NCBI GenBank assembly: GCA_964035545.1
Contig: OZ037770.1
Span: forward strand, 15,676,642 to 15,740,641
DNA length: 64,000 nucleotides
Direction of reading: 5' to 3'
Source: Bugula neritina
Taxonomy: Eukaryota > Animalia > Bryozoa
Below, one piece after another: positions 1,069-57,894 of the stretch. Both the position numbers and the translations under genes were made by a program. Numbering within the stretch: position 1 is the stretch's first letter; each line of letters begins with the position of its first letter. The notes beneath the pieces are model-generated. The model searched no databases, was not told the DNA's origin, and worked only from the letters and a program-made list of their open reading frames with translations.

Positions 1069-2523
1069 TTCAGGGTCTATTTTTATGCTTATTTCGAGTC
1101 AACAAAGTAATAAAAATCAATCGGTTTGTTTTCTATTGAATCAAAATAGACAGGAGAAGATAAACTCTAAAACACACTTGTAATCATGGAACAAATTCAA
1201 TACAACAATTAGCATCATATTCAATCAATCAGCAAGTAGAATATACATTGTATATAAGTTATTTATGTAAAGTCATCTATGACATTAATATACACATCTC
1301 TAAATATATAAATGCAGAAATATTTTTACTTCAAGCATATTTTTTCAGGAAACAGTTTTATAAACTATTTTTATGTAACAAATGAAGGAAATATCTGCTA
1401 TTTGTTATGTAGAGCATCTCTGTACTCACACACCTATGAAACTATTTCCTTTCATACGTATCATTGAGTAGACAGATTGTTGAAATTCTCCTGTGAGTTA
1501 ATTTCATGTGCTGAGTAAGCAATTCCCACACAAGTAGCTGGTCAACAGCCAACAGGGTTGCTAGGTAACCTGTAAACAAATCTTCAACGTGTACATTGTT
1601 CTTTATATAACTCGCTTCCCACATCTAATCTCACCACACCTTAAGTAACTGTTGTTTTGATGAGAAGGGCTCTTAGTGCACTCGATATGCACCTAAATAT
1701 CATAACTTCGGCAACACTGCATCTTGTAATCAGAAATATTAAAGCTATATATTCAGTATGTATAACAGTATACAGTACTAAAGCTACTTCTTGTTTGTAA
1801 CAATGCAGTACTAAAGCTACATCCGTGCAGTGAACCTAAAGTTGCATAAACTTGTAACTCTTTAATAAAACAAAAGTTTTACTTTTGCACTGAGAGCTGA
1901 TCCCCCTGTTTTATACCTTGACTTATTTAATTATATTATCTTTTAGTTATGCTATATTTAGAGCAGCTATACATGTATAACGTCATATTAAATTAGGTAA
2001 AGCTTAAATTAATAATTTTTAACTTGTTTTCAGACATTATTTCCCTTTCCTAATGAAGTAGTCGTTTTAGGATTTCGATGTGTGAGAATATTCAGTATTA
2101 ATTAACTAACTATAAATACTTTAGTCTGTTTTATACAAAATAAATCCCTACAGGATTATGGGTACACTATTATTCATTCCTTGTTTTCCCTCATTAATTA
2201 TTTACAATATTCTCAGTTAAAAAGTCTATGTAGCCAGGAGTATTTCTCACAGCTAAATGCATAAAAATCAATTTTCTTAGAGTTAGGTTGAGTTACATAG
2301 TTGTAAACTAATTCCTTCATCACGTGTAGATGTGAACCCATGTCTTTAATGAGGAAGGGGAAGATGGTTACAAGGATCTAGAGCTAACATACTTTTAATC
2401 TAATAATAAAACAAATCAGGTCACCTGATATTAACGTCAGCTAAGTTACAAGGAACATCTTTTTAGTTACCAACTGTTATTGTACTGAGCTGCACCATAG
2501 AATCTTCTGGAGTCTTATTCTCC

Positions 2524-25905: not shown

Positions 25906-27156
25906 GAGAGGATAACTCTCACAGTGTGAATACAAGAGCTGCACCATACAGCATGGCTACAGAAGAAGGGGTGTAGAGATTCCCTCTGGACTGAAACTAC
26001 AATCAGTTTAACTGAGTAAATCCGCCTCTTGGTGGTCTATAAATAGCACAGGACAGGAAACTGGTGCTACATATGCTTGTATGTAATGAGCAAACAACTT
26101 CACTGCATTGCTAAGTAATTTATTTACATTAAATATTGTGTTTTCTATCTCAAAATCAGACTGTATTTTCTGAATTTTATTATTAGTTTGTCTGTATTTC
26201 TCAGTTGTGAATCTGACTCATATTTCTAATGCTAACTCCTCTATTTTTAACTCGGTCTGTTTACTGTTACCATAGTGACAGTTTGTTGTAAATAGATTGT
26301 TTAGTGAATAGATTGAAGTATGTTTTCATATTCTTTATTGAGCAAAGAACGTAGTTAATTGGGGAGTAAAATAACAAGGAATGTGGTTGGTTGGGAAGTA
26401 TTATGTAACAAGGAATGTAGTTGGCTGGGAAGTATTATGTAACAAGGAATGTGGTTGGCTGGGAAGCATTGTATAACAAAGTTAAGGCTCAAGGCCTCTG
26501 TCTCCACTCACTAAAATGATATCATAGTGATTAGGTAACAACTCACTGACCTAGGGATGAATTGAGAGTAATCCAGGAGGGTGGATAGGGAATTATCCAA
26601 GGGGTGTGGGGTGGATTGGGAATGTGTGTAGGGGTGTGGGGTTTCAAATATTGCAAAGTATAACTTATAAAAATTGAACCTTTGTAGGTCATGTACTGAA
26701 TATGAAGTCTCCTAACAGATAATATACAATGTAGTAGAGATGTGTGTACAAATTCAATAGTGTATCACTACAGTAAAAACAACACTTTCTACACGGAGCA
26801 CCAAAAATAGGCTGCATTTCGCAGCTGAAAGTAAAAAAGAAGACAACTCTATATTACAGCATTTTCGCATGGAATGGCTAAAGTATTGAGTGTTGGCAGG
26901 GGGAATAACCTTTATATATAAGCAAAAGCTAACTGGCGCCTCAGTCTAAGAATAGCCTTGAGTTCCTAACATTTCATGGTAGGGTGGGAGTTGTGGACTA
27001 CTGACTACAGGTAGGGTAGTGACTTTGTATATTCTGTACAACATACTGTTGCTAGGCAACGCACTGCAATATTCAAACAGGAAATAGTCCAACGAGTTGC
27101 ACATACAGAATGACGTCCATCTTGCGCCACATCGGCACTGCTGTGATTGGCTACTC

Positions 27157-30100: not shown

Positions 30101-33100
30101 TATCCTGACAGATCTGTAGTATTATAAGTATATTATATAATATATTACATCTATTAGTATATATAATATATAACATCTATTAGTATATATAATATATTAC
30201 ATCTATTAGTATATATAATATATTACATCTATTAGTATATATAATATATTACATCTATTAGTATATATAATATATTACATAATATACTTAGTCAGTTCAC
30301 CTTCTTGTTATGCAGGACCTTGATATCGTTACAGGTAACCAGTTTCAAGTCGTGACGCTTTGCGCTAAACAGGAAGTCATAGTGATCGTTATTCTTGAGC
30401 TTGTCGTCCCAGTGTACTTTCATCAGCGTCTCTGTCTCAGCTATGAAGAACTGCTGCATCAAATCTGACCTACAGCGAGAGGTCGACAGCGTGGTGACAT
30501 TTGATTGGGCTCAGCGTATACAGAGTATACAGTCAGTATATAGTCAGTATACAGTCAGTATATAGTCAGTATACAGTCAGTATATAGTCAGTATACAGTC
30601 AGTATATAGTCAGTATATAGTCAGTATACAGTCAGTATATATTCAGTATATAGTCAGTATATAGTCAGTATACAGTCAGTATACAGTCAGTATACAGTCA
30701 GTATGCAGTCAGTATGCAGTCAGTATACAGTCAGTATACAGTCAGTGTATAGTCAGTATATAGTCAGTATACAGTCAGTATACAGTCAGTATATAGTCAG
30801 TATATAGTCAGTATACAGTCAGTATATAGTCAGTATACAGTCAGTATACAGTCAGTATACAGTCAGTATACAGTCAGTATATAGTCAGTATATAGTCAGT
30901 ATACAGTCAGTATATAGTCAGTATACAGTCAGTATATAGTCAGTATACAGTCAGTATACAGTCAGTATATAGTCAGTATATAGTCAGTATATAGTCAGTA
31001 TATAGTCAGTATACAGTCAGTATACAGTCAGTATATAGTCAGTATATAAGGGAGTATACAGTCAGTATACAGTCAGTATACAGTCAGTATATATGGGAGT
31101 ACTCATGCTGTAACAGTATTCAAAAAAAGGGGGACATTAGTTGGCTGAAAAAATAAAACTATGAAGTTACATAATTAATTTTGTCTTTAAAATTTAGCAA
31201 GCACTTTGATGAATATTCTGCCCCTTTAAAAACAAACATTTCATCAATTAAAGAACATCTTCTTGATTAGTAAGTGAATACATCTTTGTATAACGATAGA
31301 CTGCATGGTTAGCTAGTCTTATGAAACTGAACAGTATCATATGTTTGCTGCTTCTTATATATTAAATCATTCAGAGTACAAATATTCGTGTACACACAGC
31401 TCATACTTCACTGCCCTGTATTGTCCTCATTCACAATACCTTTTGTGAATGTTTCTATACCTCTTCTGTCAAATGGTCAATATTTGTTACCTTAGGGTTT
31501 AGTCAGGTGTTTACTTTAATTCAATTTAACTCCTGGGTATAATAGTACTGTAGGCTGATTAATAAAGTATCTAGTAAGCTGACACAGCCTGGCAGCATAC
31601 TGGCAGCATACTGTACTGGCAGCGTGTTGTTACCTGTCACATGTTGGTACGCTTTGGGAAGGATAGGAAGAGATGTTTGGGAACACCGTGAGCTCTCCGT
31701 TCTTGTTCATATGTATCATACCTGTAATATACAGTGTCATACCTATAATATACAGTATCATACCTATAATATACAGTATCATACCTATAATATACAGTAT
31801 CATACCTATAATATACAGTGTCATACCTATAATATACAGTATCATACCTATAATATACAGTATCATACCTATAATATACAGTGTCATACCTATAATATAC
31901 AGTATCATACCTATAATATACAGTATCATACCTATAATATACAGTATCATACCTATAATATACAGTATCATACCTATAATATACAGTGTCATACCTATAA
32001 TATACAGTATCATACCTGTAATATACAGTGTCATACCTATAATATACAGTATCATACCTGTAATATACAGTGTCATACCTATAATATACAGTATCATACC
32101 TGTAATATACAGTGTCATACCTATAATATACAGTATCATACCTGTAATATACAGTGTCATACCTATAATATACAGTATCATACCTATAATATACAGTATC
32201 ATACCTATAATATACAGTGTCATACCTATAATATACAGTATCATACCTGTAATATACAGTGTCATACCTATAATATACAGTATCATACCTGTAATATACA
32301 GTGTCATACCTATAATATACAGTATCATACCTATAATATACAGTATCATACCTATAATATACAGTATCATACCTATAATATACAGTGTCATACCTATAAT
32401 ATACAGTATCATACCTATAATATACAGTAGCATACCTATAATATACAGTATCATACCCATAATATACAGTATCATACCTATAATATACAGTACCATAGCT
32501 TATCTGTACAATACTTGAGCATCTCAATAAATATTGACAATTTGATTTGTGGTTTCAGGGAAGACTAAGTTTACCAAAAGAATCCAGAAATAAAATATAA
32601 GAAGACTTAGCGGTAAAACAAACACAATAATTAGCTGAGAAAGTGGTGGATGATTACCTTTACTCCGGGCACACTTGCCGTAGTCACATCTTAGGGGGGC
32701 GATAGCGTGGGCACCCGTCTTTATCAACTTGTCGGCCATCATCAACAGCAGGTCTTGCTGGTCGAGGGTGTAATCATCATCTGACATGAGCATATACTGG
32801 TACCCTGTAAGCATATATAAGCATATACTAGTACCCTGTAAGCATATATAAACATATGCTAGTACCCTGTAAGCATATATAAACATATACTGGTACTCTG
32901 TAAGCATTATATATAAACATATACTGGTACCCTGTAAGCATACATAAGTATATACTGGTACCCTGTAAGCATACATAAGCATATACTGGTACCCTGTAAG
33001 CATATATAAGCATATACTGGTACCCTGTAAGCATTATATATAAACATATACTGGTACCCTGTAAGCATATATAAACATATACTGGTACCCTGTAAGCATA

Positions 33101-36043
33101 CATAAGCATATACTGGTACCCTGTAAGCATACATAAGCAGATGGTCAACCAACTAACAGCCAGCTGAGCAAATCTGAAATCTTTTCACATTTAAAGCAAA
33201 CAGATGTCCACAACAAATTCAAGCAATTATTTTCTGTCAAGCCTTTCACTGATTGTTAGACTAAATAAGGGCTATAATTATAAATCAGGAGAGGCAACTC
33301 CTGATGAATAATGGATAAAGATCTATGGAGCATCACAACAATATAAATTAGCAAGCTTGTTGAAGAATTGCATGACATCTAATCAAGCAGTTGCATGTTT
33401 GTGGATGTGGGTTTAGCCCTGCCTTTATTTACACTGGGCCTCTTCACAAAATTGTTTTTTTATTTTTTCATGCATGTGAATAGAATACAGATAAACATGA
33501 ATTAGTAGAACCAGCCCCAACTCTGGTGTGTTTGTTGTGTTTTACATATCAGTTTAACTCTAGGAGTGGATATTTCAGCATGGCTTAAACTGCCAACAAT
33601 ACAACCAGTTGCTGCTGAAGTATTTGGACAAGGAGAGATTTTGGTTTTGTAATACAAGATGGAGTAAAGACCAAATAGCTTAAGAGGTGCTATGCAAACA
33701 GTGTCACACATCCTGTGTGCTAAGTAATCAAGTGAAATGCCAAGAGATAGTGTGACAGAGTAAATATGAGGCAAATGGTCATGTATGTTCACAGATACAA
33801 TTCATAGGAACTTTCAGGCAATATTATGATTTCACTTAGAAACCAACAAAACCTAGTCTGCCCTCTTTGTTCAGAGAGTATGAGTGACTTACAACAGAGG
33901 TACAGAGTACAGAGGATGTGTGAATACTGTTATAATTTGCATGTATAGCACAACCTCCTGGTGTTAAAATTCCATGTTTCTTCAAGAATCAGAGACCTCA
34001 ATCTGGAGAGTGAACAGAAAATTTAGAATAAACTTAGTAGTGGGTGAATTACTTCTTTTCATATTTCAGAATATCATCTAATCTTTAAAACTGTTCCAAC
34101 CAAACATAACTTGATAAATTTAGAAGTTTTGAAACTAAAACAAGCACTCACTAGTGTCCTAGTCTTTCCTTTTACATAATTTGATTATTAACAAATTTTA
34201 GGGGCAAAAATTGGGTGTGAACTTCTGCATATTTTAATTTGGTATACTCAACCACACTTTCTATGTGGATTACTGATATGAGTTAGCCAGCTGAATTACA
34301 TCTTAGCTAGCTGAAACTTAGTAGAATAAATACTGGTAAGAGAGAGGAGTTTAGTACCCATTCTATAGATGTGCTCCACCAAACGGTTTCTGCCGAAACC
34401 AACTCCGGAGTCGACAGGAAGTCGGATGTAGGTGATGTCATACGTCTTCGTCAGATTCTCGCTGACGCTGTCTTCAAACGAGTCATCTGCCACAAACACG
34501 GGGATGTCTGGGTAACTCTCCTTGAAGGAGGCTATGGTGGTCATCAGACACTCGGCTCTGTTGAACGTCTTTATAGCGACAGCGGTTCTCTGCAGGATCT
34601 CGTTAGGGGTTATGTACGACCCCTTCTTCAGGGGTGGCAGCGTGCTCCTGGGAGAGCTGCCAGTTATGACCAGTTTGGCAGCTGCTTCGCTCTCTCTCAG
34701 CGGTTTACTGGTCACCTTCTGTAGCTTCAGGGCAGACCTTGGTGTTGTGAGCTTCTTCGGGGTGGTTGGAGGGTCCTCAGCCGTCTTAGCTGTAACAGAG
34801 TCAGCTTTAGCTGTAACAGAGTCAGCCTTCTCTCTGACAGCCTTGAAGATCTCTCTCTCATTGGCCGGGGGTGGTTTGTGGGCGGGAATACGCACTGGAT
34901 AGGAGCGGTGCTCGTCAGGCTCAACGTACTGACGCAGCTGACGGTGGTCGACTTCCAGGAGCTCCGTCTGCACCATCGGCAGCCCGTCGCTGCTCGGCTG
35001 TTGCTGCAGCAGCAGGAGGATGTTCATGGAGAGGAGGGCGGTTATCCCTAGGAGGAAGTAGGGCACTTTCTTAGCCAGACTACAACAGAGTGTGTGGGTA
35101 CATGTACATAGCAGAGTACGTGAGTACATGAACAGAGCAGAGTACGTGAGTACATGAACATAGCACAGTACGTGAGTACATGTACATAGCACAGTACATG
35201 AGTACTTGTACATAGCACAGTACGTGAGTACATGAACATAGCAGAGTACGTGAGTACATGTACATATCACAGTACGTGAGTACATGAACATAGCAGAGTA
35301 CGTCACAGGAAGTGATATTCTACAGCTAAAGAGGAAAGTGTGGAGTCCCAAGGGACGGATATTGAAAAGGGAGTGGCTAGCGAAGGTAAATGCTCAGTCA
35401 GTCTACTTGAAGGTGATTTATGAAGTGAGATAGTAATTTATCACATCATTGACTATCTAAAAGTTTGGTGGCCAGAAATTTAAATGGTTTACCTCATCAT
35501 GATGGAAGATGGGACAGGTGTGTGCATTTGATTAACAGCTATACACTACACAGTACTTTATACACTACATTATACAGTGTGCTATACAATAAACTGTAGA
35601 GTGTAGTGTATACTACACAGTATACACTACACAGTACTTTATACACTACATTATACAGTGTGCTATACAATAAACTGTAGAGTGTAGTGTATACTACACA
35701 GACTAAGTGACTTGACTATGCTTTAGAGTTTAGACAGACAACGTTATTTAGGATGCTGACTTAGGATGCTGCCTTAGTTATAATGTCAAGCGATACCTTA
35801 ATTATTCAAGTACAAATCAAGTCATATTTAATAACTTAATTGACCAACTTCTAAGTTCAGTTTTCTAACCTAACTTACTTGCCTAACCCATTCCAGCAAT
35901 CATTTACCTACTTTTAGAGTTCATAAGTTCAATATAATCACAAGCAAGTTGCTCTTTCCAACAAGAAATATTTTAGATACTTACTTAGCCCGATCTCTTT
36001 GTATGAAGAAGACATCGCTAGTGGGACGTCTCCGCCTCCCCAT
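27157..36043 (-). CDS. Type II membrane two-domain glycosyltransferase (B4GALNT1/2-like GT-A domain plus B4GALNT3/4 / CHGN-like GT7 domain)
   Basis: Approx. exons: 36043-35985, 35079-34358, 32804-32658, 31721-31635, 30468-30301, 30114-29884, 29685-29585, 29408-28830, 27871-27812, 27541-27157; phases join in frame. Basic tail, TM and stem, then IKTFNR..VADDS..GRN..MSDDD..HYDF, then FSRSIGL..FAPV..GYW..GYG..IGGWD..WGAEDVD. Confidence 0.85.
28424..28633 (-). mobile_element. tRNA-derived SINE, copy 2 (diverged)
   Basis: Colinear with 5275-5498 (caagtttata ... gaggcacaggagcaattatgac ... gatgctcttcctaacatcaccaatggcc ... cacggctgctccc). Confidence 0.88.
30130..30280. repeat. ~26-bp intronic repeat
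   Basis: tattacatctattagtatatataata units. Confidence 0.9.
30525..31092. repeat. 11-bp intronic minisatellite (ta(c/t)agtcagta)
   Basis: Visible tandem array. Confidence 0.95.
31713..32492 (-). repeat. 21-bp minisatellite spanning an acceptor (tatta(c/t)ag|gtatga), ~37 copies
   Basis: The copy nearest the exon is the acceptor (exon from 31721). Confidence 0.96.
32790..33139 (-). repeat. ~31-bp repeat spanning an acceptor (atgcttacag|ggtaccagtatatgc), ~11 copies
   Basis: The unit includes the first exon codons (G-Y-Q-Y-M). Confidence 0.95.
35100..35303. repeat. 26-bp intronic repeat next to an acceptor
   Basis: acatagcagagtacgtgagtacatga units. Confidence 0.9.
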
Positions 36044-40300: not shown

Positions 40301-43300
40301 AGATCCTACAATACAGCCTCAGACACTGTGTTATAGCCTAAGATCTCATCTAACCTATAGAGGAGAACTTACTTAGCAGGAAGATGAACTTTGACATCAA
40401 AGAATATGTCAGTAGAGCTTCTCACATCGTCAAACCTACAATCAGACAGAGTACTCTCAGGGGTGGAGCGAGATGGTACAATATTGTTAGGGGGTGGAGC
40501 GAGATAGCATTATATTGTTAGGGGGTGGAGCAAGAAGGTATAATATTGTTAAGGGGTGAAGCGAGATGGTATAATATTGTTAGGGGTGGAGCGAGAAGGT
40601 ATAATATTGATAAGGGGTGGAGCAAGAAGGTATAACATTGTTAAGGGGTGGAGCAAGAAGGTATAATATTGATAGGGGGTAACTCACACTCTCTGCTTGA
40701 AGCCGGGGAAGAGAGAGTTCCCTCCAGTTAGAACGATGTTAGACGTGAAGTGAGGCTGCATTGCTGTAAAACATTTCATCCTGTTACAGAATTCACAGGA
40801 GACCTAAATTATCACATATAATAACATAACACAAGAATAATATAATATAATAATATAATATTATAATAACATAACATAATAATAATATAATAAAGAGGTA
40901 CCGGGGTCAGTTAGGCTGATGACATGATTGATGGCCTCAGCCAGTCCGATCTGCTCGATGCCGATGTCGGAGGGTCTAAACAGCACCTCGGGAACTGAGA
41001 ATCTCTCGCTGTTCATTCTGATTACCTGCGTGTAGCATATACTATAGTACTGTATTACCTGCGTACAGTATATATTATAGTATTGTATTACCTGCGTACA
41101 GTATATATTATAGTATTGTATTACCTGCGTACAGTATATATTATAGTACTGTATTACCTGTGTGTAGTATATATTATAGTATTGTATTACCTGCGTACAG
41201 TGAGATATGCAGATTATATACTATGTATAATATATTATGTATAATACACTAGAATGATACACAGTACATAGTATTATATCGTATTTATAGTAGAAGAACT
41301 AGAAGGCAATAGACTAAGGACCTGCTGCTGTTTGTTAGCTGGTTGGTCGGGTGTACGAACATAGCCCCGCTTCACTAGAGTGTAGTCTGGGAGGACGTAG
41401 TCCATTGCTAAGGTGTTGGACTTTCCTTTCAATCTGCAAATGAAATACTAGAGGTTGTTAGATGAATAGCTGATGCTAACTGACACATATACTGACACAT
41501 GTACTGACATATATGCTGACACATATGCTGACGCATACTATATACTGACACATACACTGATACTAGCTGATACATATACTGATACTAACTGATACATATA
41601 CTGATACTGATACATATACTGATACTAACTGATACATATACTGACACATATACTGATACTAACTGATGCATATACTGACACATATACTGATACATATGCT
41701 GACACATATATTGACACATACTAGATACTAACACATATGCTGACACATACTAGATACATATACTGACACATATACTGACTAAACTGATACCTGCTGTGGA
41801 CCATGTCCTTCTGAAACTGAGTAGACACAAAACATACGTCTTCCTTACACTGATTCATCACGTAGCTTTCATCCATCACCATTAGTTGTCTGTGAGGTAT
41901 CAGAACGTTAGTATAATATTATAGCATAGTATACCTGTATGATAGTATAACTGTATGATAGTATACCTGTATGATAGTACACCTGTATGATAGTACACCT
42001 GTATGATAGTATACCTGTATGATAGTATACCTGTATCAGAGCTTACCTGTATGATAGTATACCTGTATCAGAGCTTACCTGTATGAGATGATATCTTTGA
42101 GATGATTGGTCAGCTGTTTCCCACCTACATCCAGCCTGTAAGAAAACTAAACTCCATAACTGAGTTATAACTATTCTGTTTCTGTATCAACTGGGAGTAT
42201 AGAACAAGTCATACACTATCAACTAGTACAGCATGAGTTACCTCTTAGAATACTGCTGGAGTCGCCTTCCCTTATAGTAAGGAGTGATGTGTGTGAAGGA
42301 ATACCCGCTGTCGACCACTAACGTACAAGCCGGGGCTGTTTCCTGTTGACTCGTGTACTTGAGTTGACTCAGATACGAAGCTGGAAAGTTACAGAAAACT
42401 GAGGTCAGGACTGGAGGATTTAAGAGTGAAAAGTACGAGTTAACAGAAGGTGTTGTAGGAGTTATCATCTCTAATGTACAACTAGCAACTTACAGTTACA
42501 CTTGAATGAAGACCTGAACTGATATTCTTCGAATATGATCTCAGCCATGGCTTCCTGAACTGTGGTGAAGTTGTGGAGAGGCTCTGTTATGATCAGATCT
42601 GTCTCATCAAAGTCTACCTTTTGACACAAGAAGAAAATCAGTAGAATAGAGCAGATACAGGGCAGAGAGAAGAAGGGAAAGTAACAAGAATCAGAACAGA
42701 GGAGAAAGATACAGCATAGAATGAGGGAGAGAGAGAGTAGCTGTATCTAAACCTGTAAGCAACTCTTTCCATAGACATAGTCCCAGACTTGTTTTTCAAT
42801 TTCCCAATTCACAAGATACCCCTAAAACAAAAAAAATTAAAGTAGCAGTTATATAGTTTGACTGTCTGGTTATGCCACATACACTGCAGGCTCTTCTCTA
42901 AACTACTAGTGAAATGTAAATATGACAATAACATTCAACTAAAGATTTATCCTCAGCATCCAATAAAGCAAATAGTTGACAGCCAGTGACTTAAAGTTAC
43001 AGCAATTCTCCTTATTATATGTTCAGAATGTTTTATTGTTCATAGTTCTGCCCAATCAATAATTTCAAAGCTACTGGAAATACAGGACTCTTCAAGTACC
43101 TTTTGGAAAGGTAGAAGATAGAATAACCCAGAGAGATCTTTACACTCATCTATCTGATCACCAATGAAGCAACGACTTCTTACCGTCTTAGCCTTCATTA
43201 CACAGTTGGGCATAACCCTGTAATTTGTGAAGAATAACAGATCACATACTAATACAAAGTCGATAGATGATTAAATGATCTAAGGTTTGATAACTTATAG

Positions 43301-44096
43301 TTATAGTCATACTCAGAATGAGTAATTTTCTCTCATGTTTGAGTGACAGACAGGTATTTCTACCACAATGACTAGTCAAATATTAGCATATTAGTATTAG
43401 GTATAGGTATAGCTCTTCATGTCATTTTACAAATATAAATTATAATGTTTAGGTTCAACATAATGATGAAGTTGAAACTAAAACAATATATCATTATTTT
43501 TATTTTACATGAACATCATTAATTTTATCATTATGATTACCTGTCAGACTCAGTGTCTGATTATCATTATTTATTATCATCACGGCTTATGATCATCAGT
43601 CACACCAACCATTCAACAACTTTCAGTTTTTTATTAAAAGGTGGTGCACCATTAAATTCCCATTATCATTATGATTACACCTGCAACATGAATATTACTT
43701 TGAATACCCGCCGTTGTTATTGTTACTCATATTGAGGTTATTTAGCACACCTTTGACAATTACCACTCATAAAGCTAATAGTAATAACACCGATGGCGAC
43801 ACCGACTGTCAAACTGATAGTGATAATCATTATGATTACACCTGCAACATGAATATTACTTTGAATACCCACCGTTGTTATTGTTATTCATATTGAGCTT
43901 ATCATTTACTTTTAGCACACCTTTGACAATAACTACTCATAAAGCTAATAGTAATAACACCGATGACGACACCGTGACATCATGATGTAAAACTAAATGA
44001 GAATAATTTAATTTTAAATTATTACCTGGGATTTTCTGCATCAGAAAACTCTGCTTTAACAGAGCCTGCTCCATTGTCAAGGACTAATACCACCAT
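37337..44096 (-). CDS. ACTR6: Actin-related protein 6 (SWR1/SRCAP subunit)
   Basis: Exons encode [133 protein letters not shown]. Last exon 37472-37337 ([10 protein letters not shown]). Confidence 0.96.
39290..39530. repeat. CA-containing compound repeat in the last ARP6 intron
   Basis: (ca)n + agttacatacatgt(c/t)tac(c/a)agaac units. Confidence 0.9.
40460..40680. repeat. ~30-bp repeat filling an ARP6 intron
   Basis: ggggtggagcgagatggtataatattgtta units. Confidence 0.88.
41022..41200 (-). repeat. ~35-bp repeat spanning an ARP6 acceptor (cgcag|gtaat)
   Basis: attacctgcgtacagtatatattatagt units on the + strand. Confidence 0.9.
41930..42084 (-). repeat. ~16-bp repeat spanning an ARP6 donor (atacag|gt)
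   Basis: acctgtatgatagtat / cttacctgtat units. Confidence 0.88.
43663..43975. repeat. ~160-bp direct duplication in ARP6 intron 1
   Basis: cattatgattacacctgcaac...aataacaccgatg(g/a)cgacacc occurs twice. Confidence 0.9.
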
Positions 44097-45764: not shown

Positions 45765-48700
45765 TCATTTTCTAGATCGCCTGCTGCGAGCTGTAGACTT
45801 TGAGGTGCCCATGGAGAACATACCTGGACCTCCGGTAGGTGCAGAGGCACCAAACTGTGGTGTCGCTGAAAAGAGGAACAAATATGGAGTGGTTAGTAGA
45901 GGAGAAAGAGACCTAGAGTACTAGAAGATGAAATACTGGATGTGCAGTGAGAATACAATGAGATGGTACATTGAGATGGTACAATGAGATGGTACAATGA
46001 GATGGTACAATGAGATGTGACCAGAGGAATACAAGTAACAAACCTGATGTAGCACCAAACGTAGGAACTGTAGTAGAGCCAAAGTTGAACATAGGCTTAG
46101 CTTGGTCTGTAGTCTGAGAACCAGCTGCGAATGGATTAGAGTTGGGTTGGGGAGCAGATGCAGTGCCGAAAGGAGAAGGTTGAGCAGCACTAGATGTACC
46201 AAAGGTGCTGCCAAATACTGGGGTATCTACAAGATATATCAGTATAGCATAACAACACAGTATATATAATATTGTATGATATATGACATCACATACTCTG
46301 AGTAGAGTAGAGTAGGGTACAGAGTAGGGTACAGAGTAGAGAAAGGAGGTCACTTACTCTGACTTGAACTGCTGCCGAACACCGGCGTAGATGTTCCTGC
46401 AGTTCCAGAACTACCAAACACACCCGTCAAGTTGTTGGAACCAGCAGAGCCAAATGCAGGAGGATTTGCAGAGGCTCCAAAGGCTGGAGGTGCGTTTGTT
46501 GCACCGAATGTCGGGGGTTTGCTGGATGCCCCGAAGTTGAAGGAGGGAGTAGAGGAGGAGGTCTGGAAAGCAGCAGCACCAAAGTTAAAGGAGGAGGCAG
46601 CGGGTTGGGTCTGTGAGCCGAATGCTCCGGCCCCTGCTCCAGCGGATGACGTGGAAGTCTGGGTTGTGCTGAATATTCCTGAGAGAAGGGGAGATAAATC
46701 TTAACAAAAGTGTACTAGTACTATTAGTGCTAGTACACTTAGTAGTACTAGTAGCAGTAGTACTAGTACTACTGCTACTAGTACTACTGCTATTAGTACT
46801 ACTGCTACTGCTACTACTGCTACTACTACTGCTACTACTAGTACTACTACTACTACTACCAGTACTACTACTACTAGTACTAGTACTACTACTACTACTA
46901 CTAGTACTACTACTACTACTAGTACTACTTATACTACTACTACTACTAGTACTACTTATACTACTACTGCTACTGCTGCTACTAATGCTACCACTACCAC
47001 TACCAGTGCTACTACTAGTACTACTCACCAGGCAAGGTGGAGTTGGTTCCCCCAAACAGTGAAGAGGAGGTGGAGGCAGGTGCAGAAGGATTACCAAATA
47101 TGGAGCTGCCAGGCTGACTGCCAGAAGCTCCAAATGGCGTGGAAGAGCCAAAGGTGAAGCCGGTTGCTGAAGACGTGTCAGTTTTGGCAGCACCTGGTGG
47201 GCAGAAGTCAGCATACTTTATGATGGCAACAGACAGACAAACACTGTGAGACACACAGACAGACACTGTGATACACACATACACTATGAGACAGACAGAC
47301 AGACAGTGTGATACAGACAGACAGACAATGTGATACACACAGACAGACAGTGTTAGACGTATAGACTGAGTTCTACTCACCGAAAACTGATGTGGAGCTG
47401 GTAGTTACTGCTGCTGTCGACAAACTACTGGCAGCCTGTGAACCACCAAACGCAAATGTGGAGGAGGAGGGGGCGCTAGTCTGAGCCCCAAACACAAATG
47501 AAGAGGAGACGGATGAGGCTGTTGAAATAGCTGCAGGAACCTTAAAACCAGAGAAGGCTGTGGCGGGGTGAGACGAATTGGTACCAGTTGGAGCAGCTGT
47601 ACTGCTAGTGGGCGTGGCCCCAAAGGTGAAGGTCGAAGTTGGAGCTGCTGTACTGCTAGTGGGCGTGGCCCCAAAGGTGAAGGTAGAAGTTGGAGCTGCT
47701 GTACTGCTAGTGGGCGTGGCACCAAAGGTGAAGGTAGAAGTTGGAGCTGCTGTACTGCTAGTGGGCGTGGCCCCAAAGGTGAAGGTCGAAGTTGGAGCTG
47801 CTGTACTGCTAGTGGGCGTGGCACCAAAGCTGAAGGTCGAAGTTGGAGCTGCTGTACTGCTAGTGGGCGTGGCACCAAAGGTGAAGGTCGAAGTTGGAGC
47901 TGCTGTACTGCTAGTGGGCGTGGCACCAAAGCTGAAGGTCGAAGTTGGAGCTGCTGTACTGCTAGTGGGCGTGGCACCAAAGGTGAATCTCGAAGTTGGA
48001 GCACATGCAGTAGAACTGGTGAAACTTGCAGACGACATAAATGAAGCAGAAGGGAGAAGAGAAGAACTGGTAGCAGCAGTCGAAGTCTTAGAGTTATCAA
48101 ATGAAAATGTCGGAGGAGCTGGTTTAGCAGAGATAGTCTGAGAGCCAAAGGAGAAGGCTGCTGTAGTAGCGGGAGGTGGAGGATCTGAAGCTGAGGCTAA
48201 ACTGGCACCAAAGTTGAACGTTGGGAATGAAGACCTGAAGAAGAAACAAGCTAGATGTTAGTACCTAGTAACTAACATCTAGTGACTATGGACTAACAAC
48301 TAGTACCTAGTAACTAACAATTAGTACCTAGTAACTAACATCTAGTACCTAGTAACTAACATCTAGTACCTAGTAACTAACAACTAGTACCTAGTAACTA
48401 ACATCTAGTACCTAGTAACTAACATCTAGTACCTAGTAACTAACAACTAGTACCTAGTAACTAACATCTAGTACCTAGTAACTAACATCTAGTACCTAGT
48501 AACTAACAACTAGTACCTAGTAACTAACATCTAGTACCTAGTAACTAACATCTAGTACCTAGTAACTAACATCTAGTACCTAGTAACTAACATCTAGTGA
48601 CTATAAACTAGTAAATTCAAAATTAACAGTGAGTACTGACTAGTAAATAGTGACTACTCACCCAAACGTTGAAACAGCAGGAGTTATCTTCACCTGTTCG

Positions 48701-51700
48701 CTGACAGTCGAATCAGTGTTAGTCGTGACTACAATACAGAGTAGAGAGAGTACAATACAGAGTAGAGAGAGTATAATACAGAGTAGAGAGAGAGTATAAT
48801 ACTGAGTAGAGAGAGTATAATACAGAGTAGAGAGAGTATAATACAGAGTAGAGAGAGTATAATACAGAATAGAGAGAGAGTATAATACAGAGTAGAGAGA
48901 GTATAATACAGAATAGAGAGAGAGTATAATACAGAGTAGAGAGAGTATAATACAGAGTAGAGAGAGTATAATACAGAGTAGAGAGAGTATAATACAGAGT
49001 AGAGAGAGTATAATACAGAGTAGAGAGAGTATAATACAGAGTAGAGAGAGTATAATACAGAGTAGAGAGAGTATAATACAGAGTAGAGAGAGTATAATAC
49101 AGAGTAGAGAGAGTATAATACAGAGTAGAGAGAGTATAATACAGAGTAGAGAGAGTATAATACAGAGTAGAGAGAGTATAATACAGAGTAGAGAGAGTAT
49201 AATACAGAGTAGAGAGAGTATAATACAGAGTAGAGAGAGTATAATACAGAGTAGAGAGAGTATAATACAGAGTAGAGAGAGTATAATACAGAGTAGAGAG
49301 AGTATAATACAGAGTAGAGAGAGTATAATACAGAGTAGAGAGAGTATAATACAGAGTAGAGAGAGTATAATACAGAGTAGAGAGAGTATAATACAGAGTA
49401 GAGAGAGTATAATACAGAGTAGAGAGAGTATAATACAGAGTAGAGAGAGTATAATACAGAGTAGAGAGAGTATAATACAGAGTAGAGAGAGTATAATACA
49501 GAGTAGAGAGAGTATAATACAGAGTAGAGAGAGTATAATACAGAGTAGAGAGAGTATAATACAGAGTAGAGAGAGTATAATACAGAGTAGAGAGAGTATA
49601 ATACAGAGTAGAGAGAGTATAATACAGAGTAGAGAGAGTATAATACAGAGTAGAGAGAGTATAATACAGAGTAGAGAGAGTATAATACAGAGTAGAGAGA
49701 GTATAATACTGAGTAGAGAGAGTATAATACAGAGTAGAGAGAGTATAATACAGAGTAGAGAGAGTATAATACAGAGTAGAGAGAGTATTTGCTCACCTGG
49801 CCCTAGTACAGAAGAACCTATGAAAGTGGCTGTAGTAGCAGGTGTGGTGGTGGTAGTTGAAGTACTGCACTCAGTAGTAGCTGCAGGGAGTACTGGAGAA
49901 ACAGTAACAGCAGCAGCAGTACTAGTAGTACTAGCAGTACTAGTACTACTGGCAGTATTAGTAGAATGAGTACTAGTGGTAGTACTTGGTGCGTTTTGAC
50001 TCTGACTCAAGTTAAATTGGACACCCTACAAATATACAAAATAGTCTCTAGCTGATGAATTAGAAACTAGTGAAGCAAAGTAGTACATAAAGATGACACA
50101 AGCGGCAGAAAGCAGCTGGGGGGTGCAGCTAAGAGATGAGGGGGAAGAGGTGGGCCACGGGCTACACTAACTAAGAGACATCTCTCACCTTCAACCACTT
50201 TGATTGGTAAAGTTGTTTGGGCCAGACGCGCTGAATGGTTTTAAGTCTCATGCTCTGAATAGCAGTTAGACCAGAGGGGTTGGTGGCATTGGATCCGGGA
50301 CGGTAGAACCAATCCAACGACTCAGAAAAGGCAGCATTACCACAAGGGGTTGTCTTTTCAACACCCCTTTGTTCTAACGACGTCCACCACCATCTTTGCT
50401 GCTCCCATGATATGCTGCCTTTGAAAACACAACGAAAATGCTTCACAGCATCTTCATTGTCTTTGCGAAGTTTCATCAACTCTCTTTCGGTGTTGTCAGT
50501 GCAATCGGAAGGATGACTGGTGGTGAGATAACGAGAGGGACCATATTGAACAATGGCCGATAGCTGTGCCACTAACACAGACAACTGAGCATAATCAAAA
50601 CTATGAGCAGGAGAGCTGCACAAGCTCCATGTTCTGTATGGAAAGGAGTCAGAACTGTCAGTAGTCTCAGACTTTTGGGGAGGAAAATTGAATAAATGCA
50701 GCATCTGACAGTTTCTTTGATTACAGCTTTCCTTAGTCTGAGAGCAGCTCCGTGTAGTCTGAGTACTAATATTCACAGCTACATTGACAATGGTCTGAGT
50801 TTCCTTACTATCTGTCCCCACACTACATTGCTCTACTATGTCCTGAACTTCTGCCGTCAGAAGACACTTTGGGTTGGTTGTTCCAGGTTTTAGAGTTGTT
50901 GTTTTGCGACAGAAAGGGCAGTTTCGCCGTATGACCTTGATCCCTGAGATGATGGCTTCCTTATAAGGCAGTCGCTTGATACAGTCGGCACACACCCTGT
51001 GCAGGCAGCTCAGCACATGCAGTTGACGAAATTGATCACAGATCTTACAAGTCACAGCTTCCCTTATTTGTTCAATAGGTGTTAGCCTGGCTTCCATTCT
51101 AGCATGAACACAGCTGAACAATGAGCATGTGTTGACACTAGTAAATTGTGTTTGTTACCAGGGTATTGTGATTGAAACAAACACGGTTAGCAACACTATT
51201 GATGACTGGGCATAGGAAAAAAATAACAATGTATCACGTGATTGGACTACTGCTGTGTGGGGATTCCCCTTTCTAATATTACTGAAGCCGATAAGAGCAT
51301 TGCAGTGCCAACAAGTCCCTGGATTTACGTAAGGTTTGAATACCTCTGTCTAAACTCTAAAGTAATGCCACTCATTATTGGCATAGTACTATGTTATTTT
51401 TCCTAGTGGGAATTACACATGGCTATCAAGAGAAGATAAGACCTAACAGTTAGATACCAAAATATATTGCAACACTAAAACAAAAACAGTGACAAACACC
51501 TTAGATACAAAAATAAAAGTCAATAAAACTTATAACAGAGCCAAAAAGGAATGCAAATAAAAAGAATTATCATTTGAATAAAAAAGTACTATAAAATATA
51601 AATTAGTAAATATTAGCACAAAGTTAACTACGAGAGTGTTACATAACTGTTTTGATTATTCAGAGTGTAGATGCAGAGTAGAGAGAGTCCTTGACATCTC

Positions 51701-54700
51701 TTACACAGCAGGGAATGGCTGTCAAACCTGCTTTCCATTATCTCCTGGTGGATCTACACTTCCAGTAAAAGGAGGTAGGAACATACTAAAAGCCTCACTG
51801 CCATAATGTCCCCCGTTATGTGAACACCGACGAGTAGCTAATTTTATTTCTCGTTGATTTCCAGCCGCGTGCACTTGAGATTCAGTACCACCACTTTCTT
51901 GTTGCCCTCTCTCATTAAATAGCTGCTGCCCCCTCCCCTTTGATAACTGCTCTCTACTCTCTACTGATGACTGATGCCCGTCAGCTGACATTCCCCCTCC
52001 GTCAGCCTCTCCAGCTGCTGCATCCTCCCCATTAGTTACAAGTGAGAAAGCATGAGCTACCTGTTCACATGACTCCTGTCTCAACTGATCTACCTGAGAT
52101 TCATAAGTTGGCTCCTCCTCTGTAGCATCTCCACAAGTCGAAACCGCTCTCTCCGTCTCCTCCACCTTCCTTCTCAGTGAGCTGGCCGACCTGGCCAGCG
52201 AACTCTCCAGATTATCCTCATGTTCCGCCACAGCTTTGGTATTTTGAGCTTGGAAGGCCAAGTTCTGATTGAAGCAAACGCCATATCTGGTAGGAAGAGC
52301 GTCCCAGCTGTCGTAGCCGATCACAGTAGCTTCAAAGCGAGTGAGAGTACCGGAGTCACTGTAGGTCATCAACAGATTCACCGACCTGGGTTGGGGGGCG
52401 GAGCGGAGCTCCCTCTGCAGCTGAAGCCTCCTGAACTGCTGCAGGCAATCAAGGCAGCTGACTCGTAGATCTCGCTGTGCTGCCGACACCCTCAGCTCCG
52501 TCCAGCATCGTCCACAATACCAGTGACCACATTGGACTACTTGCATAAACGCCTCCACCTCACAAACTACGCAGTCATGCAACAAGTCCATTTTAAAGCC
52601 GAGCTTCTAATGACAAACTCCCGAATGCCCAAAACCCTTCTTCCAGTGAGCAAAAAAGGGGACTTCCCATTTGCAGAGGGGTAAAACACCGGCACAAATA
52701 TTTAACCTCTGAGCACATGTGATTAATCGATAATTCTGCATGAATGTGCAGATATCAATACCATTGATTACTCTAGTATTGTTTATTGTTTGTAGACAAT
52801 AGACCAGCACAGGTGAAGCAAACACAGAGAAAGATGAAAGCACACCGACTGTATGCTCTGGTGTTGTTAGACTATTACAGTGCAGCCAGTTGAATCAATA
52901 TAGAGTAACAAGGAGAAATAGCGAGACACAAGAGAGTAGACAACTCCTGAGTGAGATACAATTGAGTAGACAGCTCCTGAGTGAGATACAATTGAGTAGA
53001 CAACTCCTGAGTGAGATACAACTGAGTAGACAACTCCTGAGTGAGACACAATTGAGTAGACCACTCCTGAGTGAGATACAATTGAGTAGACAGCTCCTGA
53101 GTGAGATACAATTGAGTAGACAACTCCTGAGTGAGATACAATTGAGTAGACAACTCCTGAGTGAGATACAATTGAGTAGACAACTCCTGAGTGAGACACA
53201 ATTGAGTAGACAACTCCTGAGTGAGATACAATTGAGTAGACAACTCCTGAGTGAGATACAATTGAGTAGACAACTCCTGAGTGAGATACAATTGAGTAGA
53301 CAACTCCTGAGTGAGATACAATTGAGTAGACAACTCCTGAGTGAGATACAATTGAGTAGACAACTCCTGAGTGAGAGACAATTGAGTGGACAACTCCCAA
53401 GTATCTGACTGGTATGGATAGGAACAGTAGGGACTCAATAGTTAGCTACAAGCTCCTATTGTAATAATATTAGAACAGGAGTGTATATAGCATGGGGTAG
53501 AAGGGGTGTAGTAAGGAATGGATAGCGAGCGGAGGGGGGTTGAACCAAGAATATACCAAAAGTGGACTCACCAGTTTGCTGCTTTGAGTTGCCGAGTCAC
53601 TAGTTACTGTGTTTAGGGGTGGGTTGAATGCCCGTCCCTGCACAGAGGATGTGGTGGAGGATGGAACTGAAGCTATACTCTGGACCAGTGAATCTACAGT
53701 GAGAGTTGCCATAGTAACAGTAATGCGTGTCAACATAATATGTTAATATACAGTGTGAGGTGTATAGTATACAGTGTGTATAGTATACTGACTGTTGGTA
53801 GAAGTGGAACTGGAGGTAGAATTAGCCTGAGATCTCACAGCAGGTAAACTTATAGTGGGTTGGACTATCGGCATGACAACCTGCAATATACACCAACACT
53901 CAGTACTACACAGAGTATCACTCAGTACTATACAGTATCACTCAGTACTATACACAGTATCACTCAGTACTATACAGTATCACTCGGTACTATACAGAGT
54001 ATCACTCAGTACTATACAGAGTATCACTCGGTACTATACAGAGTATCACTCAGTACTATACAGTATCACTCAGTACTATACAGAGTATGACTCAGTACTA
54101 TACAGTACTAACTACTAGATAGTACTGACCTGGCCAGTAGTACTAGTACTAGTAGTATTAGTTAAAGTACTACTAGTAGAACTGGCAGGGGCCGAGGAGT
54201 CGTCTATTCCCAGGAGACATTTAACTCTCCTGGCGTCCATATCTTCATCATATGCTCTGTCTTCCAGTGTGGCTACGAACCCGGACTCTGGCTAATAATA
54301 CGGTATAGTAATACGGTATAGTGGAGTAGTTGTATATAGTAATACAGTATAGTATATAATAATACATTATAGTATACAATAATACAGTATAGTATATAAT
54401 ACAGTATAGTATATAATAATACAGTATAGTATATAATAATACAGTATAGTATATAATAATACAGTATAGTATATAATAATACAGTATAGTATACAATAAT
54501 ACAGTATAGTATATAATAATACAGTATAGTATATAATAATACAGTATAGTATATAATAATACAGTATAGTATATAATAATACAGTATAGTATATAATAAT
54601 ACAGTATAGTATACAATAATACAGTATAGTAGTTGTATATAGCAACACACCCCGTAGGCTATGCTATCCTCTAGACTGGATATCTTAGCCACTTTAGAGG

Positions 54701-57700
54701 CTGGTGGTTGGGGGGTGTGAATAGCCTCCGTATGGTTGATAAAGGAGCTAGTTGGAGGACACGGACTAGACCTAGGGCTATTTTTGAGTGAAGGGAGGGG
54801 TGTGACTGAAATCCTTGAACCGGCCTCACTTTCATTGTCGCTCTGATCAGGAGCTGAGGGAATCGGAGTTCCTCTTCTGGAGCTTTCTCTACAGTGTATA
54901 TAGTATATAGGTCACAGTGTATATAGTATATAGGTCAGTGTATATAGTATATAGGTCAGTATATATAGTATATAGGTCAGTGTATATAGTATATAGGTCA
55001 GTATATATAGTATATAGGTCAGTGTATATAGTATATAGGTCAGTGTATATAGTATATAGGTCAGTGTATATAATATATAGGTCAGTGTATATAGTATATA
55101 GGTCAGTGTATATACATACCGGCTAGAGTTGAGGTAGCTAAGAGCAGTTGAACGTTTGTAAAGAGGTTCCTCTGTATCATCATAGTATGCTCTCTTCTAC
55201 AAAGTATTATGTAACAGTGTTTACTGTAAGTTATTGCTTACTTACACTGCACACACTTACATTGAATACACTTACACTGAACACACTTACACTGAATACA
55301 CTTACACTAAACACACTTACACTGAATACACTTACACTGAACATACTTACACTGAATACACTTACACTGAATACACTTACACTGAACACACTTACACTGA
55401 ACACACTTACACTGAACACACTTACATTGAATACACTTACACTGAATACACTTACACTGAATACACTTACACTGAACACACTTACACTGAACACACTTAC
55501 ACTGCACACACTTACACTGCACACACTTACACTGAATACACTTACGCTGAACACACTTACGCTGAACATACTTACACTGAATACACTTACACTGAACACA
55601 CTTACACTGCACACACTTACACTGCACACACTTACACTGCACACACTTACACTGAACACACTTACACTGCACACACTTACACTGAACACACTTACACTGA
55701 ACACACTTACGCTGAACATACTTACACTGAACACACTTACACTGAACACACTTACCCTCCTACGAGTTGAACTGTAGCTACTGGCTATGGCAGTACGTAG
55801 GTGGCCATCTCTCCTGGGAGTCAGCACGGGGGGAAGAGGCAGCACAGAGGGAAGTTCTCTGTTACTACTCACTCCACTGTTACTCTGCCCCTCACTGTCA
55901 GCGCCCAGTCTACTCGGCTGAGCGAACGTCTGCCCGTCAGCGCCAGGGGAGTGCTGCCTCACTCGCTTGCTGTCAGCGGCAGCACTCTGAGACTCGTCTG
56001 AATGCTGATTGGAGAGAATATCAGAGTCTGTGAGTTTCCGTTTAGCACCTGCTTTCTGTCTCAGTACGTCTATGATCTGAGTTGGTGGGGGGACTTCTCT
56101 CCTCCCCTGTATTACGCTCCTGTGATAGTCAGCAGTGTAAGTATAGTAGAATACAGTACATCAGTATATAGTACATCAGTATACCAGTATACCAGTATAT
56201 AAGTATATGAGTACGTCAGTATATCAGTATATAGTACATCAGTATATCAGTATACCAGTATATGAGTACGTCAGTATATCTGTATATAGTATATCAGTAT
56301 ACAAACTGATTAAACAACTTACAGAGGAGACTTTGGAGTTATGCTATCATTTCCAGGAATCCTGACCGAGTCACGAGAAGGATATACTGGTTTCCTGTTC
56401 GTTCTGTACCCAACAGACGGTATGAGACCTGCAATGGGAAAGTGTTGTAATAACACCCCTGCCATACCCTCTGCACCCCTGTCATACCCTCTACACCCCT
56501 GTCATACCCTCTACACTCCTGTCATACTCTCTACACCCCTGTCATACTCTCTACACCCCTGTCATACCCTCTACACCCCTGTCATACCCTCTACACCCCT
56601 GTCATACTCTCTACACCCCTGTCATACTCTCTACACTCCTGTCATACTCTCTACACCCCTGTCATACCCTCTACACCCCTGTCATACCCTCTACACTCCT
56701 GTCATACCCTCTACACTCCTGTCATACCCTCTACACTCCTGTCATACCCTCCACCCCTGCCATACTCTCTACACCCCTGTCATACCCTCTACACCCCTGT
56801 CATACCCTCTACATCTATGTCTCACTCTCTACACCCCTGTCATACCCTCTACACCCCTGTCATACCCTCTACACCCCTGCCATACCCTCTACACTCCTGT
56901 CATACCCTCTACACCCCTGTCATACCCTCTACACCCCTGAGATACTCTCTCTACACCCCTGCCATACCCTCTACACCTAGCACTCTCTCTTCCCTACCTA
57001 GCACTCTCTCTCCACCCCTAGCACTCTCTCTACACTCCTAGCACCCCCTCTACACTTTTAGCATCTTTGCTCTACACTCCTAGCACCCCCTCTACACCCC
57101 CTCACTGAAACTGCAACTGATACTGTGACTTACCTAGCCTGGATCTAGACAGGTTCTGTAGTATAGGACGTCTGGACGGCTCCGGCGCCAGCCTGAAGGA
57201 AGGGGGGTGGTGAGGTAGAGGATCAAACTCCATCTGGGAAAGTTGGTGGTACCTGTTTGACATGCCAGTATTGTGTCCATTCATAGAGCTACCTTGTGAC
57301 ACCTGCCAACACAAACCATGCACGGTCACTAGCTAGTAACGTCATGTGTCTCAGTGTAGACTGTTGTACAGTAGTGGTACTTACCTGGGGACACACCTTT
57401 GTAGACTTCAGCTGGAAGGAGCTCCCAGCTGCGGGTGGTGTCATGTGAGAGAGGGTGGATCTGGCAGACACGGGAGAGGTGGTGAGTGAGACACTGTCAC
57501 TGTCTGTACTGGGTACAGGGTCATGGCTAGAGGCTGCAGTAGGCAGGGAGTTGTCCTTACTTGCACTTTGTGTGTTGCTAGTTGAAGAACTGGAAGAGTG
57601 TACAGTGTTATAGAGTGTATAGTTCTATATAGTATACAGTGCTACATAGTAGATAATAACAGACTGAGACATGCATAGTGATACTAAAGACACAGCCTAC

Positions 57701-57894
57701 ATGAACTTATGTAATTATAGACAAGAGATGTGACCTATAAATCACTAGTTGACAGCTACTTGACACCCCCTTATTATCACCTAAACACATGGCGAATACT
57801 AAGTAGTCATTTCAGCACCTACACAGTTGAAGGTTGCTTTCTGTGACATGGAAATAGTATGAATTTGTAGCCCTTACCTGGCAGTATTACCCAT
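45765..57894 (-). CDS. POM121-like FG-repeat nucleoporin
   Basis: Spliced translation: MGNTASSS..., RLGLIPSVGYRTNRKPVYPSRDSVRIP, bipartite NLS AKRK..SKRVR, RTAIASSYSSTRR, PESGFVATLED, S/T-rich FG region, C-terminal FSMGTSKSTARSRRSRK. From recollection these resemble vertebrate POM121 blocks (LGVLPTV, TVRIAPP, RNAITSSYSST, PQLGYSITAED). No RanBP2 zinc fingers, which argues against NUP153. Confidence 0.8.
47585..48001 (-). repeat. Coding 60-bp repeat (TFTFGATPTSSTAAPTS-type FG unit), ~7 copies
   Basis: Near-identical in-frame units in ORF 47373-48038. Confidence 0.93.
48250..48600. repeat. 21-bp intronic repeat (tagtacctagtaactaacatc)
   Basis: Fills the intron. Confidence 0.95.
48730..49786. 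repeat. 21-bp minisatellite (tataatacagagtagagagag), ~50 copies, making up almost the whole intron
   Basis: Intron is 49796-48729 on the - strand. Confidence 0.97.
50171..51097 (-). CDS. Intronless RING-HC (C3HC4) protein B nested in a POM121-like intron
   Basis: 308-aa non-repetitive ORF from agaATGG. C-x2-C-x10-C-x-H-x2-C-x2-C-x20-C-x2-C; TQT motifs. Confidence 0.75.
   Translation of the reverse strand: MEARLTPIEQIREAVTCKICDQFRQLHVLSCLHRVCADCIKRLPYKEAIISGIKVIRRNCPFCRKTTTLKPGTTNPKCLLTAEVQDIVEQCSVGTDSKETQTIVNVAVNISTQTTRSCSQTKESCNQRNCQMLHLFNFPPQKSETTDSSDSFPYRTWSLCSSPAHSFDYAQLSVLVAQLSAIVQYGPSRYLTTSHPSDCTDNTERELMKLRKDNEDAVKHFRCVFKGSISWEQQRWWWTSLEQRGVEKTTPCGNAAFSESLDWFYRPGSNATNPSGLTAIQSMRLKTIQRVWPKQLYQSKWLKVRDVS
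51234..51269. promoter_or_regulatory. Candidate promoter of RING ORF B: E-box, CCAAT and kB-like site
   Basis: tcacgtga, attgg (CCAAT on -) and ggggattcccc, 140-170 bp upstream of the ATG. Confidence 0.45.
51722..52591 (-). CDS. Intronless RING-HC (C3HC4) protein A nested in a POM121-like intron
   Basis: 289-aa ORF from aaaATGG. C-x2-C-x10-C-x-H-x2-C-x2-C-x16-C-x2-C, then an acidic, coiled-coil-like segment. Confidence 0.75.
   Translation of the reverse strand: MDLLHDCVVCEVEAFMQVVQCGHWYCGRCWTELRVSAAQRDLRVSCLDCLQQFRRLQLQRELRSAPQPRSVNLLMTYSDSGTLTRFEATVIGYDSWDALPTRYGVCFNQNLAFQAQNTKAVAEHEDNLESSLARSASSLRRKVEETERAVSTCGDATEEEPTYESQVDQLRQESCEQVAHAFSLVTNGEDAAAGEADGGGMSADGHQSSVESREQLSKGRGQQLFNERGQQESGGTESQVHAAGNQREIKLATRRCSHNGGHYGSEAFSMFLPPFTGSVDPPGDNGKQV
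52659..52668. promoter_or_regulatory. kB-like site upstream of RING ORF A
   Basis: gggacttccc fits GGGRNNYYCC, ~70 bp upstream of the ATG. Confidence 0.4.
52930..53398. repeat. 30-bp minisatellite (gagtagacaactcctgagtgagatacaatt), ~16 copies
   Basis: Visible; upstream of the nested RING pair. Confidence 0.96.
53897..54107. repeat. ~21-23-bp intronic repeat (agtatcactcagtactatac)
   Basis: Fills the intron. Confidence 0.9.
54300..54630. repeat. 20-bp intronic repeat (acagtatagtatataataat)
   Basis: Fills the intron. Confidence 0.92.
54892..55113. repeat. 21-bp intronic repeat (gtgtatatagtatataggtca)
   Basis: Fills the intron. Confidence 0.92.
55240..55755 (-). repeat. 15-bp repeat starting at a donor (gtaagtgtgttcagt), ~34 copies
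   Basis: Follows exon end ...SSTRR|gtaagt. Confidence 0.95.
56453..57100. repeat. 20-bp intronic repeat (ctacacccctgtcataccct)
   Basis: Fills the intron. Confidence 0.95.

Follow-up and report, generated by a model that had tools for sequence, protein, structure and literature searches.

An intronic RING-finger reading frame is a candidate alternative first coding exon of an FG-nucleoporin gene in the bryozoan Bugula neritina

We analyzed a 64,000-nucleotide (nt) stretch of the Bugula neritina genome (contig OZ037770.1 of assembly GCA_964035545.1, forward-strand positions 15,676,642 to 15,740,641), hereafter the window, whose own numbering is used throughout. It contains a gene for a nucleoporin with phenylalanine-glycine (FG) repeats, and intron 10 of this host gene holds two intronless open reading frames (ORFs) with RING fingers, here called ORF-A and ORF-B. 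We favor, with some reserve, the explanation that ORF-B provides the host gene with an alternative first coding exon and that the product is an FG-targeted E3 ubiquitin ligase at or near the nuclear pore. One component of this explanation, the splicing of ORF-B to host exon 11, we hold with greater assurance and regard as likely. If the splice is real, a single nucleoporin gene yields a RING-FG hybrid in addition to a pore component; in the hybrid, the entire N-terminal half is swapped for an E3 head.

The host gene (45765..57894, minus strand) was modeled by hand from GT-AG sites as 17 predicted coding exons with 1155 codons and no internal stops. Intron 10 (50026..53571, minus strand; phase 0) is by far the longest of its 16 introns, at 3,546 nt against 1,068 nt for the runner-up. 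FG dipeptides number zero in residues 1–516 of the model and 32 in residues 517–1155. Residue 517 opens the sequence encoded by exon 11, so intron 10 splits the host exactly at the boundary between its FG-free and FG halves. The final exon of the FG-free half, exon 10 (53572..53693, minus strand), ends in a phase-0 donor; exons 11–17 (45765..50025, minus strand) encode the 639-residue FG half.

Evidence for the proposed splicing of ORF-B to the FG half

ORF-B (50171..51097, minus strand) encodes 308 residues up to its stop codon. In both ORFs an in-frame phase-0 donor lies 1–5 codons before the stop, and for this reason the stop codons may not be the true protein ends. In ORF-B the donor (AAG/GTGAGA, 50188..50189, minus strand) follows Lys303, five codons ahead of the stop and at the predicted fusion point, and its phase matches that of the acceptor of host exon 11. 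When all 250 GT sites of intron 10 were ranked with a matrix derived from the 16 donors of the host, this donor came fourth. In-frame AG/GT sites are rare in general, occurring at 2 of the 1067 positions in 50031–51097.

Additional evidence comes from X6, a sequencing run of a close relative (5–12% diverged) that was classed as RNA by guess. Joints 50024/53572 and 53693/53793 are present in X6, indicating that it contains spliced RNA and confirming that intron 10 is removed and that exon 10 is placed as in the model. In X6, one contig covering ORF-B is placed whole on 50189–51207 and another, from the intron, is placed whole on 49998–50218. Their 30-nt overlap is the same as that of neighboring contigs elsewhere, which means that the assembly graph branches between 50189 and 50188. 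The bin depths are accounted for by this pair of contigs without a third (35.4 expected, 35.2 observed) and leave no room for another path there, so the other branch must leave the region. The intron contig ends at 49998, as a merge predicts when the upstream exon has xAG as its last letters; the host exon, ending in CTG, would have given 49997. In X1, X2 and X5 the contigs continue past 50189, and the DNA runs have no break at this position. The X6 depths (82 for ORF-B, 69 for ORF-A, 21–27 for the intron contigs and 90 for the host joint; flat in X2 and X5) provide a weak hint only. For the sequence of the window itself no RNA data set was listed, which carries no information about expression.

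A candidate acceptor, a T-rich tract followed by CAG (51205..51230, minus strand), lies 108 nt upstream of the ORF-B start codon and close to the start of the X6 ORF-B contig at 51207. This signal may instead be an allele break. We rejected ORF-B as an internal cassette exon (51205–50189, 1017 nt), since an in-frame stop lies 17 codons past the acceptor. A spliced leader was also considered; the few papers listed by a literature search gave no bryozoan evidence for one.

The same arrangement in a Watersipora protein model

The only named full-length homolog of ORF-B is found in another bryozoan, Watersipora subatra. In this protein (XP_067950277.1, an NCBI model, here P0005) the ORF-B homolog (35% identity, E = 1.6e-28) is followed in frame by a homologous FG half. 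The similarity of this FG half to that of the host stands well above shuffled sequences (z 9–12 overall, z 7–10 for the last 80 residues), and the 942-residue fusion assembled in silico aligns to P0005 as one collinear stretch. P0005 has two FG halves, 64% identical and both homologous to the host FG half, which flank the RING; the N-terminal half of the host has no match in it. This suggests that RING and FG half were duplicated as a unit. The database name of P0005, 'streptococcal hemagglutinin-like', is misleading. One of its upstream pieces we take to be retroelement-like, although Pfam found nothing there. The words 'nucleoporin' and 'RING' are absent from the main text of the Watersipora genome note.

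Could the fusion transcript exist merely as a by-product? A nested RING gene lacking a strong terminator might splice into the next host exon, with the FG tail remaining idle. Such a scenario would agree with the tails past the conserved domain, which vary across the ORF-B family, and with the unstable tail of ORF-A. It agrees poorly with the finding that the same join is modeled in Watersipora at 35% identity, with the frame kept and exactly at the FG boundary, and we regard it as distinctly improbable.

The ORF-B family

A search with ORF-B against 1.84 billion representatives returned 13 matches. The counterpart in the close relative is 91% identical and has an in-frame 8-residue insertion and an open frame; three other matches span the full length at 33–38% identity. 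Outside the RING, the similarity of ORF-B to P0004 and P0005 far exceeds that to shuffled sequences (z 30 and 20, respectively). By these comparisons, ORF-B is a real, old gene.

Members of the family are intronless and share one layout: a RING, then TQT motifs, then a conserved C-terminal domain. In ORF-B the TQT motifs are at residues 100 and 112. A TQT was present 35–50 residues past the RING in all 11 ORF-B-like sequences examined, with 0.04–0.17 expected in each. The first TQT motif of ORF-B fits the LC8 consensus in the available part of PMC3078936. ORF-B thereby carries the TQT-anchored linear motif of LC8 (DYNLL) clients, and binding is predicted. The C-terminal domain (approximately residues 165–303 of ORF-B) has 18 invariant positions in five sequences and no match among PDB sequences or in Pfam, and the family similarity stops at a Trp just before the ORF-B donor. 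Taken together, these sequence features define, in an understudied phylum, a RING family that has no name and whose conserved C-terminal domain is new.

The best matches of the family profile among solved structures were TRIM RINGs (E = 2e-5 to 8e-4), confined to the RING part. B-box matches appeared only in P0013 and P0015, two distant RING-only matches. In metagenome contigs a single-protein scan produced no match, and a profile scan pointed to five loci. One of these, L005, was dropped as an intron-containing RING-only match. Another, L002, has three intronless ORF-B paralogs in tandem (579–4498). Near the stops of its second and third paralogs we observed GTAG/GT, and a short exon-like stretch rich in S, P and A follows at about 5405.

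To estimate selection on ORF-B we used 23 of the 26 differences listed in 50189–50700, namely those common to X5 and X6, and dropped three that occur in X2 only; the listed differences come from 40 of the 329 rows of the difference table. For codons 133–303 these differences amount to 10 synonymous and 13 non-synonymous ones, and the ratio of non-synonymous to synonymous rates (omega) is 0.49 (P = 0.07).

Weighing the proposed fusion

Several observations count against ORF-B as a first exon of the host. The 11 joints listed for X6 include the host joint 53572–50025 and do not include 50189–50025; the 30-nt donor side of the latter contains a mismatch mid-way, which may explain why it is not listed. 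RNA support comes from one run, taken as RNA by guess and derived from a relative as diverged as stated above. Selection on ORF-B codons 133–303 appears to be only mildly purifying. No FG exon was seen in the 1.2 kb after the three L002 paralogs. P0005 was modeled automatically, with the upstream FG copy and an N-terminal stretch of unrelated sequence attached to the RING as well; it may therefore be chimeric, and its junction differs by a few residues from the one predicted for ORF-B. A search for longer homologs found none among 4688 candidates, though it missed P0005 as well. Finally, the counterpart of ORF-A in the close relative (P0002) stops about 55 codons early.

Some of these observations would be accommodated if both ORFs were stand-alone intronless nested genes of a tandem RING family, each with its own promoter and polyadenylation site, whose products act as small E3 ligases without involvement of the host. 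Both ORFs do end in normal stops, a T-rich tract follows ORF-A, the L002 paralogs form an array with no nucleoporin shown, and the fusion joint is missing from the X6 list. Yet neither AATAAA nor ATTAAA was found downstream of either stop within intron 10. Stand-alone genes would also leave unexplained why X6 contigs end at 50189 and at 49998 and why the Watersipora model is a fusion, and they do not fit the end of family similarity at the Trp that precedes the donor. On balance, we consider it unlikely that the ORFs are independent genes of this kind. The sequence-only reading, which had presented them as such, was right that the ORFs are real and missed the phase-0 donors, the X6 contig ends and the Watersipora model.

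Shared anatomy of the two ORFs and the status of ORF-A

Much of what the sequence-only reading had noticed was borne out. Two intronless RING ORFs do lie where it placed them, at 51722–52591 (289 residues) and 50171–51097 (308 residues) on the minus strand, and the host reading frame passes in phase 0 from the exon that ends at 53572 to the one that starts at 50025, in the stop-free model and at the X6 joint alike. Each ORF has all eight C3HC4 ligands, with the spacing C-x2-C-x10-C-x-H-x2-C-x2-C-x16/20-C-x2-C. Pairwise comparison confines the similarity between the two to the RING. Neither has a B-box or SPRY domain, neither C-terminal part has a Pfam match, and no terminal repeats are present in 50026–52930. 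Pfam RING matches were below the curated cut-offs (1e-5 to 7e-3 for ORF-B, 0.03 and weaker for ORF-A), Atlas matches were RING-only and all under 0.9, and structure predictions for both ORFs were of low confidence (mean pLDDT 31 and 34). The claim that these are real, undescribed RING (predicted E3 ligase) coding sequences also stands: full-length homologs of ORF-B exist, with identities of 33–38%, and the frames of both ORFs are open in the relative. An Arg after the last Cys, the linchpin, is a hallmark of active RINGs. It is present in ORF-B (Arg64) and in the five homologs checked; ORF-A has a Leu.

ORF-A (51722..52591, minus strand) combines a complete RING (Cys7–Cys49) with a fast-evolving body and an unstable C-terminal tail, and has no TQT. 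Its sole homolog, P0002, comes from the close relative and shares 73% identity across 218 residues. With no homolog beyond that relative and no likeness to ORF-B outside the RING, the suggestion that the two ORFs form a two-gene module was not upheld. Its candidate donor (CAG/GTTTGA, 51727..51728, minus strand), one codon before the stop, is weak, ranking 19th of the 250 GT sites in the intron; this donor type is used once among the host donors. The 3′ region of ORF-A (51745–51971) is rearranged between alleles of the relative, with insertions and replaced stretches. X6 contigs break at 51745 and DNA contigs do not; this break, like the X6 contig start at 51207, may reflect a splice site or an allele break.

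The sequence-only reading had further proposed that the ORFs are virus or transposon cargo or retroposed copies, and had named a dN/dS check and the state of other alleles as tests. If they had recently arrived as viral or transposon cargo, or were retrocopies in decay, their lack of introns within an intron-rich window would be natural. The nearest Atlas clusters of ORF-A are indeed small viral RING proteins, at 0.88, under the 0.9 level taken as a lead. Moreover, codons 1–84 of ORF-A evolve at a neutral-like rate (13 non-synonymous and 4 synonymous differences, omega 1.3; 17 of the 19 listed differences used, two single-allele rows dropped), and sparing of its eight RING ligands is not significant (0.27). 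Against this, no relatives were found in viral contigs or PHROGs, terminal repeats are missing as noted, and the GC content at third codon positions is 0.45–0.48 in the ORFs and 0.47 in the host. ORF-B has been kept beside the same host in Watersipora. In ORF-A, the start codon and every RING ligand are preserved and no indel interrupts the frame across 52310–52621 in four runs, and the chance of no stop arising under neutrality is about 0.03–0.05. Cargo or decay thus seems very improbable. The intronic RING array probably includes ORF-A as a diverged and probably transcribed member, for which fusion to the host would be putative.

The host nucleoporin and other features of the window

The FG half of the host contains 32 FG and 16 FxFG motifs, as in a C-terminal FG/FxFG domain, although its Pfam Nucleoporin_FG match (0.005) is below the cut-off. 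A 51-nt coding tandem repeat in 8 copies (47586–48002, minus strand) enlarges the FxFG array. No transmembrane segment was found in the model, the maximal 19-residue hydropathy being 1.18 and falling within the FG region. The 1155 residues of the model include no CxxC and hence none of the RanBP2-type zinc fingers of Nup153. The Pfam POM121 domain did not match any of the 5 of 17 host exons scanned, each singly. The first half contains three basic clusters resembling nuclear localization signals (NLS). Together with an SSYSSTR motif, these lead us to assume that the host is POM121-like. The model starts with MGNTAS (57878–57894, minus strand), presumably an N-myristoylation pattern, and a lipid anchor could stand in for the membrane helix of POM121. 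An AG lies 24 nt upstream of the start codon, and a further upstream exon is possible. In the available text of PMC4888837, Pom121 is treated as a vertebrate innovation.

A 30-bp tandem repeat of about 16 copies (52923..53397) occupies the 5′ end of intron 10. Minisatellites, each specific to its intron, fill most introns in the window (143 tandem-repeat rows), and several of them begin at the donor itself. Downstream of the host is a multi-exon actin-related gene (40861–44090, minus strand), presumably ARP6. Exon pieces at 19650–20117, 26946–29440 and 32524–35393 (all minus strand) we take to belong to a Mn superoxide dismutase and two glycosyltransferase-like genes.

Proposed function and comparison with known systems

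According to the explanation we favor, a transcript would start inside intron 10, presumably from an internal promoter, and donor 50189 would be spliced to host exon 11 at 50025. The predicted product is a 942-residue protein with a RING head on a 639-residue FG-repeat tail, and it would lack the N-terminal half of the host together with its NLS-like basic clusters. The TQT motifs may bind an LC8 dimer and so pair two RINGs, and the TRIM-like RING with its linchpin Arg may recruit an E2 enzyme. The FG tail would position the ligase on FG binders for ubiquitination, be they transport receptors, the FG mesh of the pore or incoming FG-binding particles. Such a protein would offer a direct test case for FG repeats as a natural substrate-targeting module for ubiquitination.

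A literature search, made at the level of titles and abstracts with few subscription papers, found no natural RING-FG isoform of a nucleoporin. Like the RINGs of TRIM32, TRIM30, TRIM2 and TRIM5, that of ORF-B is N-terminal and of the C3HC4 type, follows a helix and has a linchpin Arg. In contrast to TRIM proteins, the ORFs have no B-box, SPRY or NHL, and the match is limited to the RING; without a B-box, ORF-B is not a TRIM as far as its domains can be recognized.

The closest parallel for how the isoform would be made is sPom121, for which the accessible part of Franks et al. 2016 (PMC4888837) describes how transcription from a different start site, with new 5′ exons, drops the N-terminal anchor of the nucleoporin. 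The predicted ORF-B isoform would arise in the same way, from an alternative start and a new 5′ exon. However, the new exons of sPom121 are, in that account, untranslated and the NLS domain is kept, whereas here a 303-codon RING exon would replace the whole FG-free half.

For the protein itself, the only comparable case we found is a laboratory construct restricting lentiviruses, the engineered TRIM5 RBCC-NUP153C. As reported in the available text of Matreyek et al. 2013 (PMC3795039), it bound lentiviral capsids via FG motifs and lowered HIV-1 titer 5–10 fold, and neither half alone worked. A free FG-repeat C-terminal part of a nucleoporin, POM121C 614–987, likewise binds capsid and blocks nuclear entry according to the portions seen of PMC13483366 and PMC5584925, but it is an overexpressed truncation without a RING. 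It is tempting, if decidedly speculative, to imagine that bryozoans carry a natural TRIM-nucleoporin trap, an intronic RING array of which at least one head is spliced to the FG tail, yielding soluble ligases as baits for viral or retroelement capsids that bind FG motifs and would be marked for destruction; ORF-A and the tandem paralogs would then be traces of an arms race. The engineered construct and the predicted bryozoan isoform both have a RING-bearing head on the FG-rich C-terminal half of a nucleoporin. The engineered one includes a B-box and a coiled coil, whereas the bryozoan protein, a putative natural fusion, lacks a B-box and has TQT motifs and an unnamed conserved domain.

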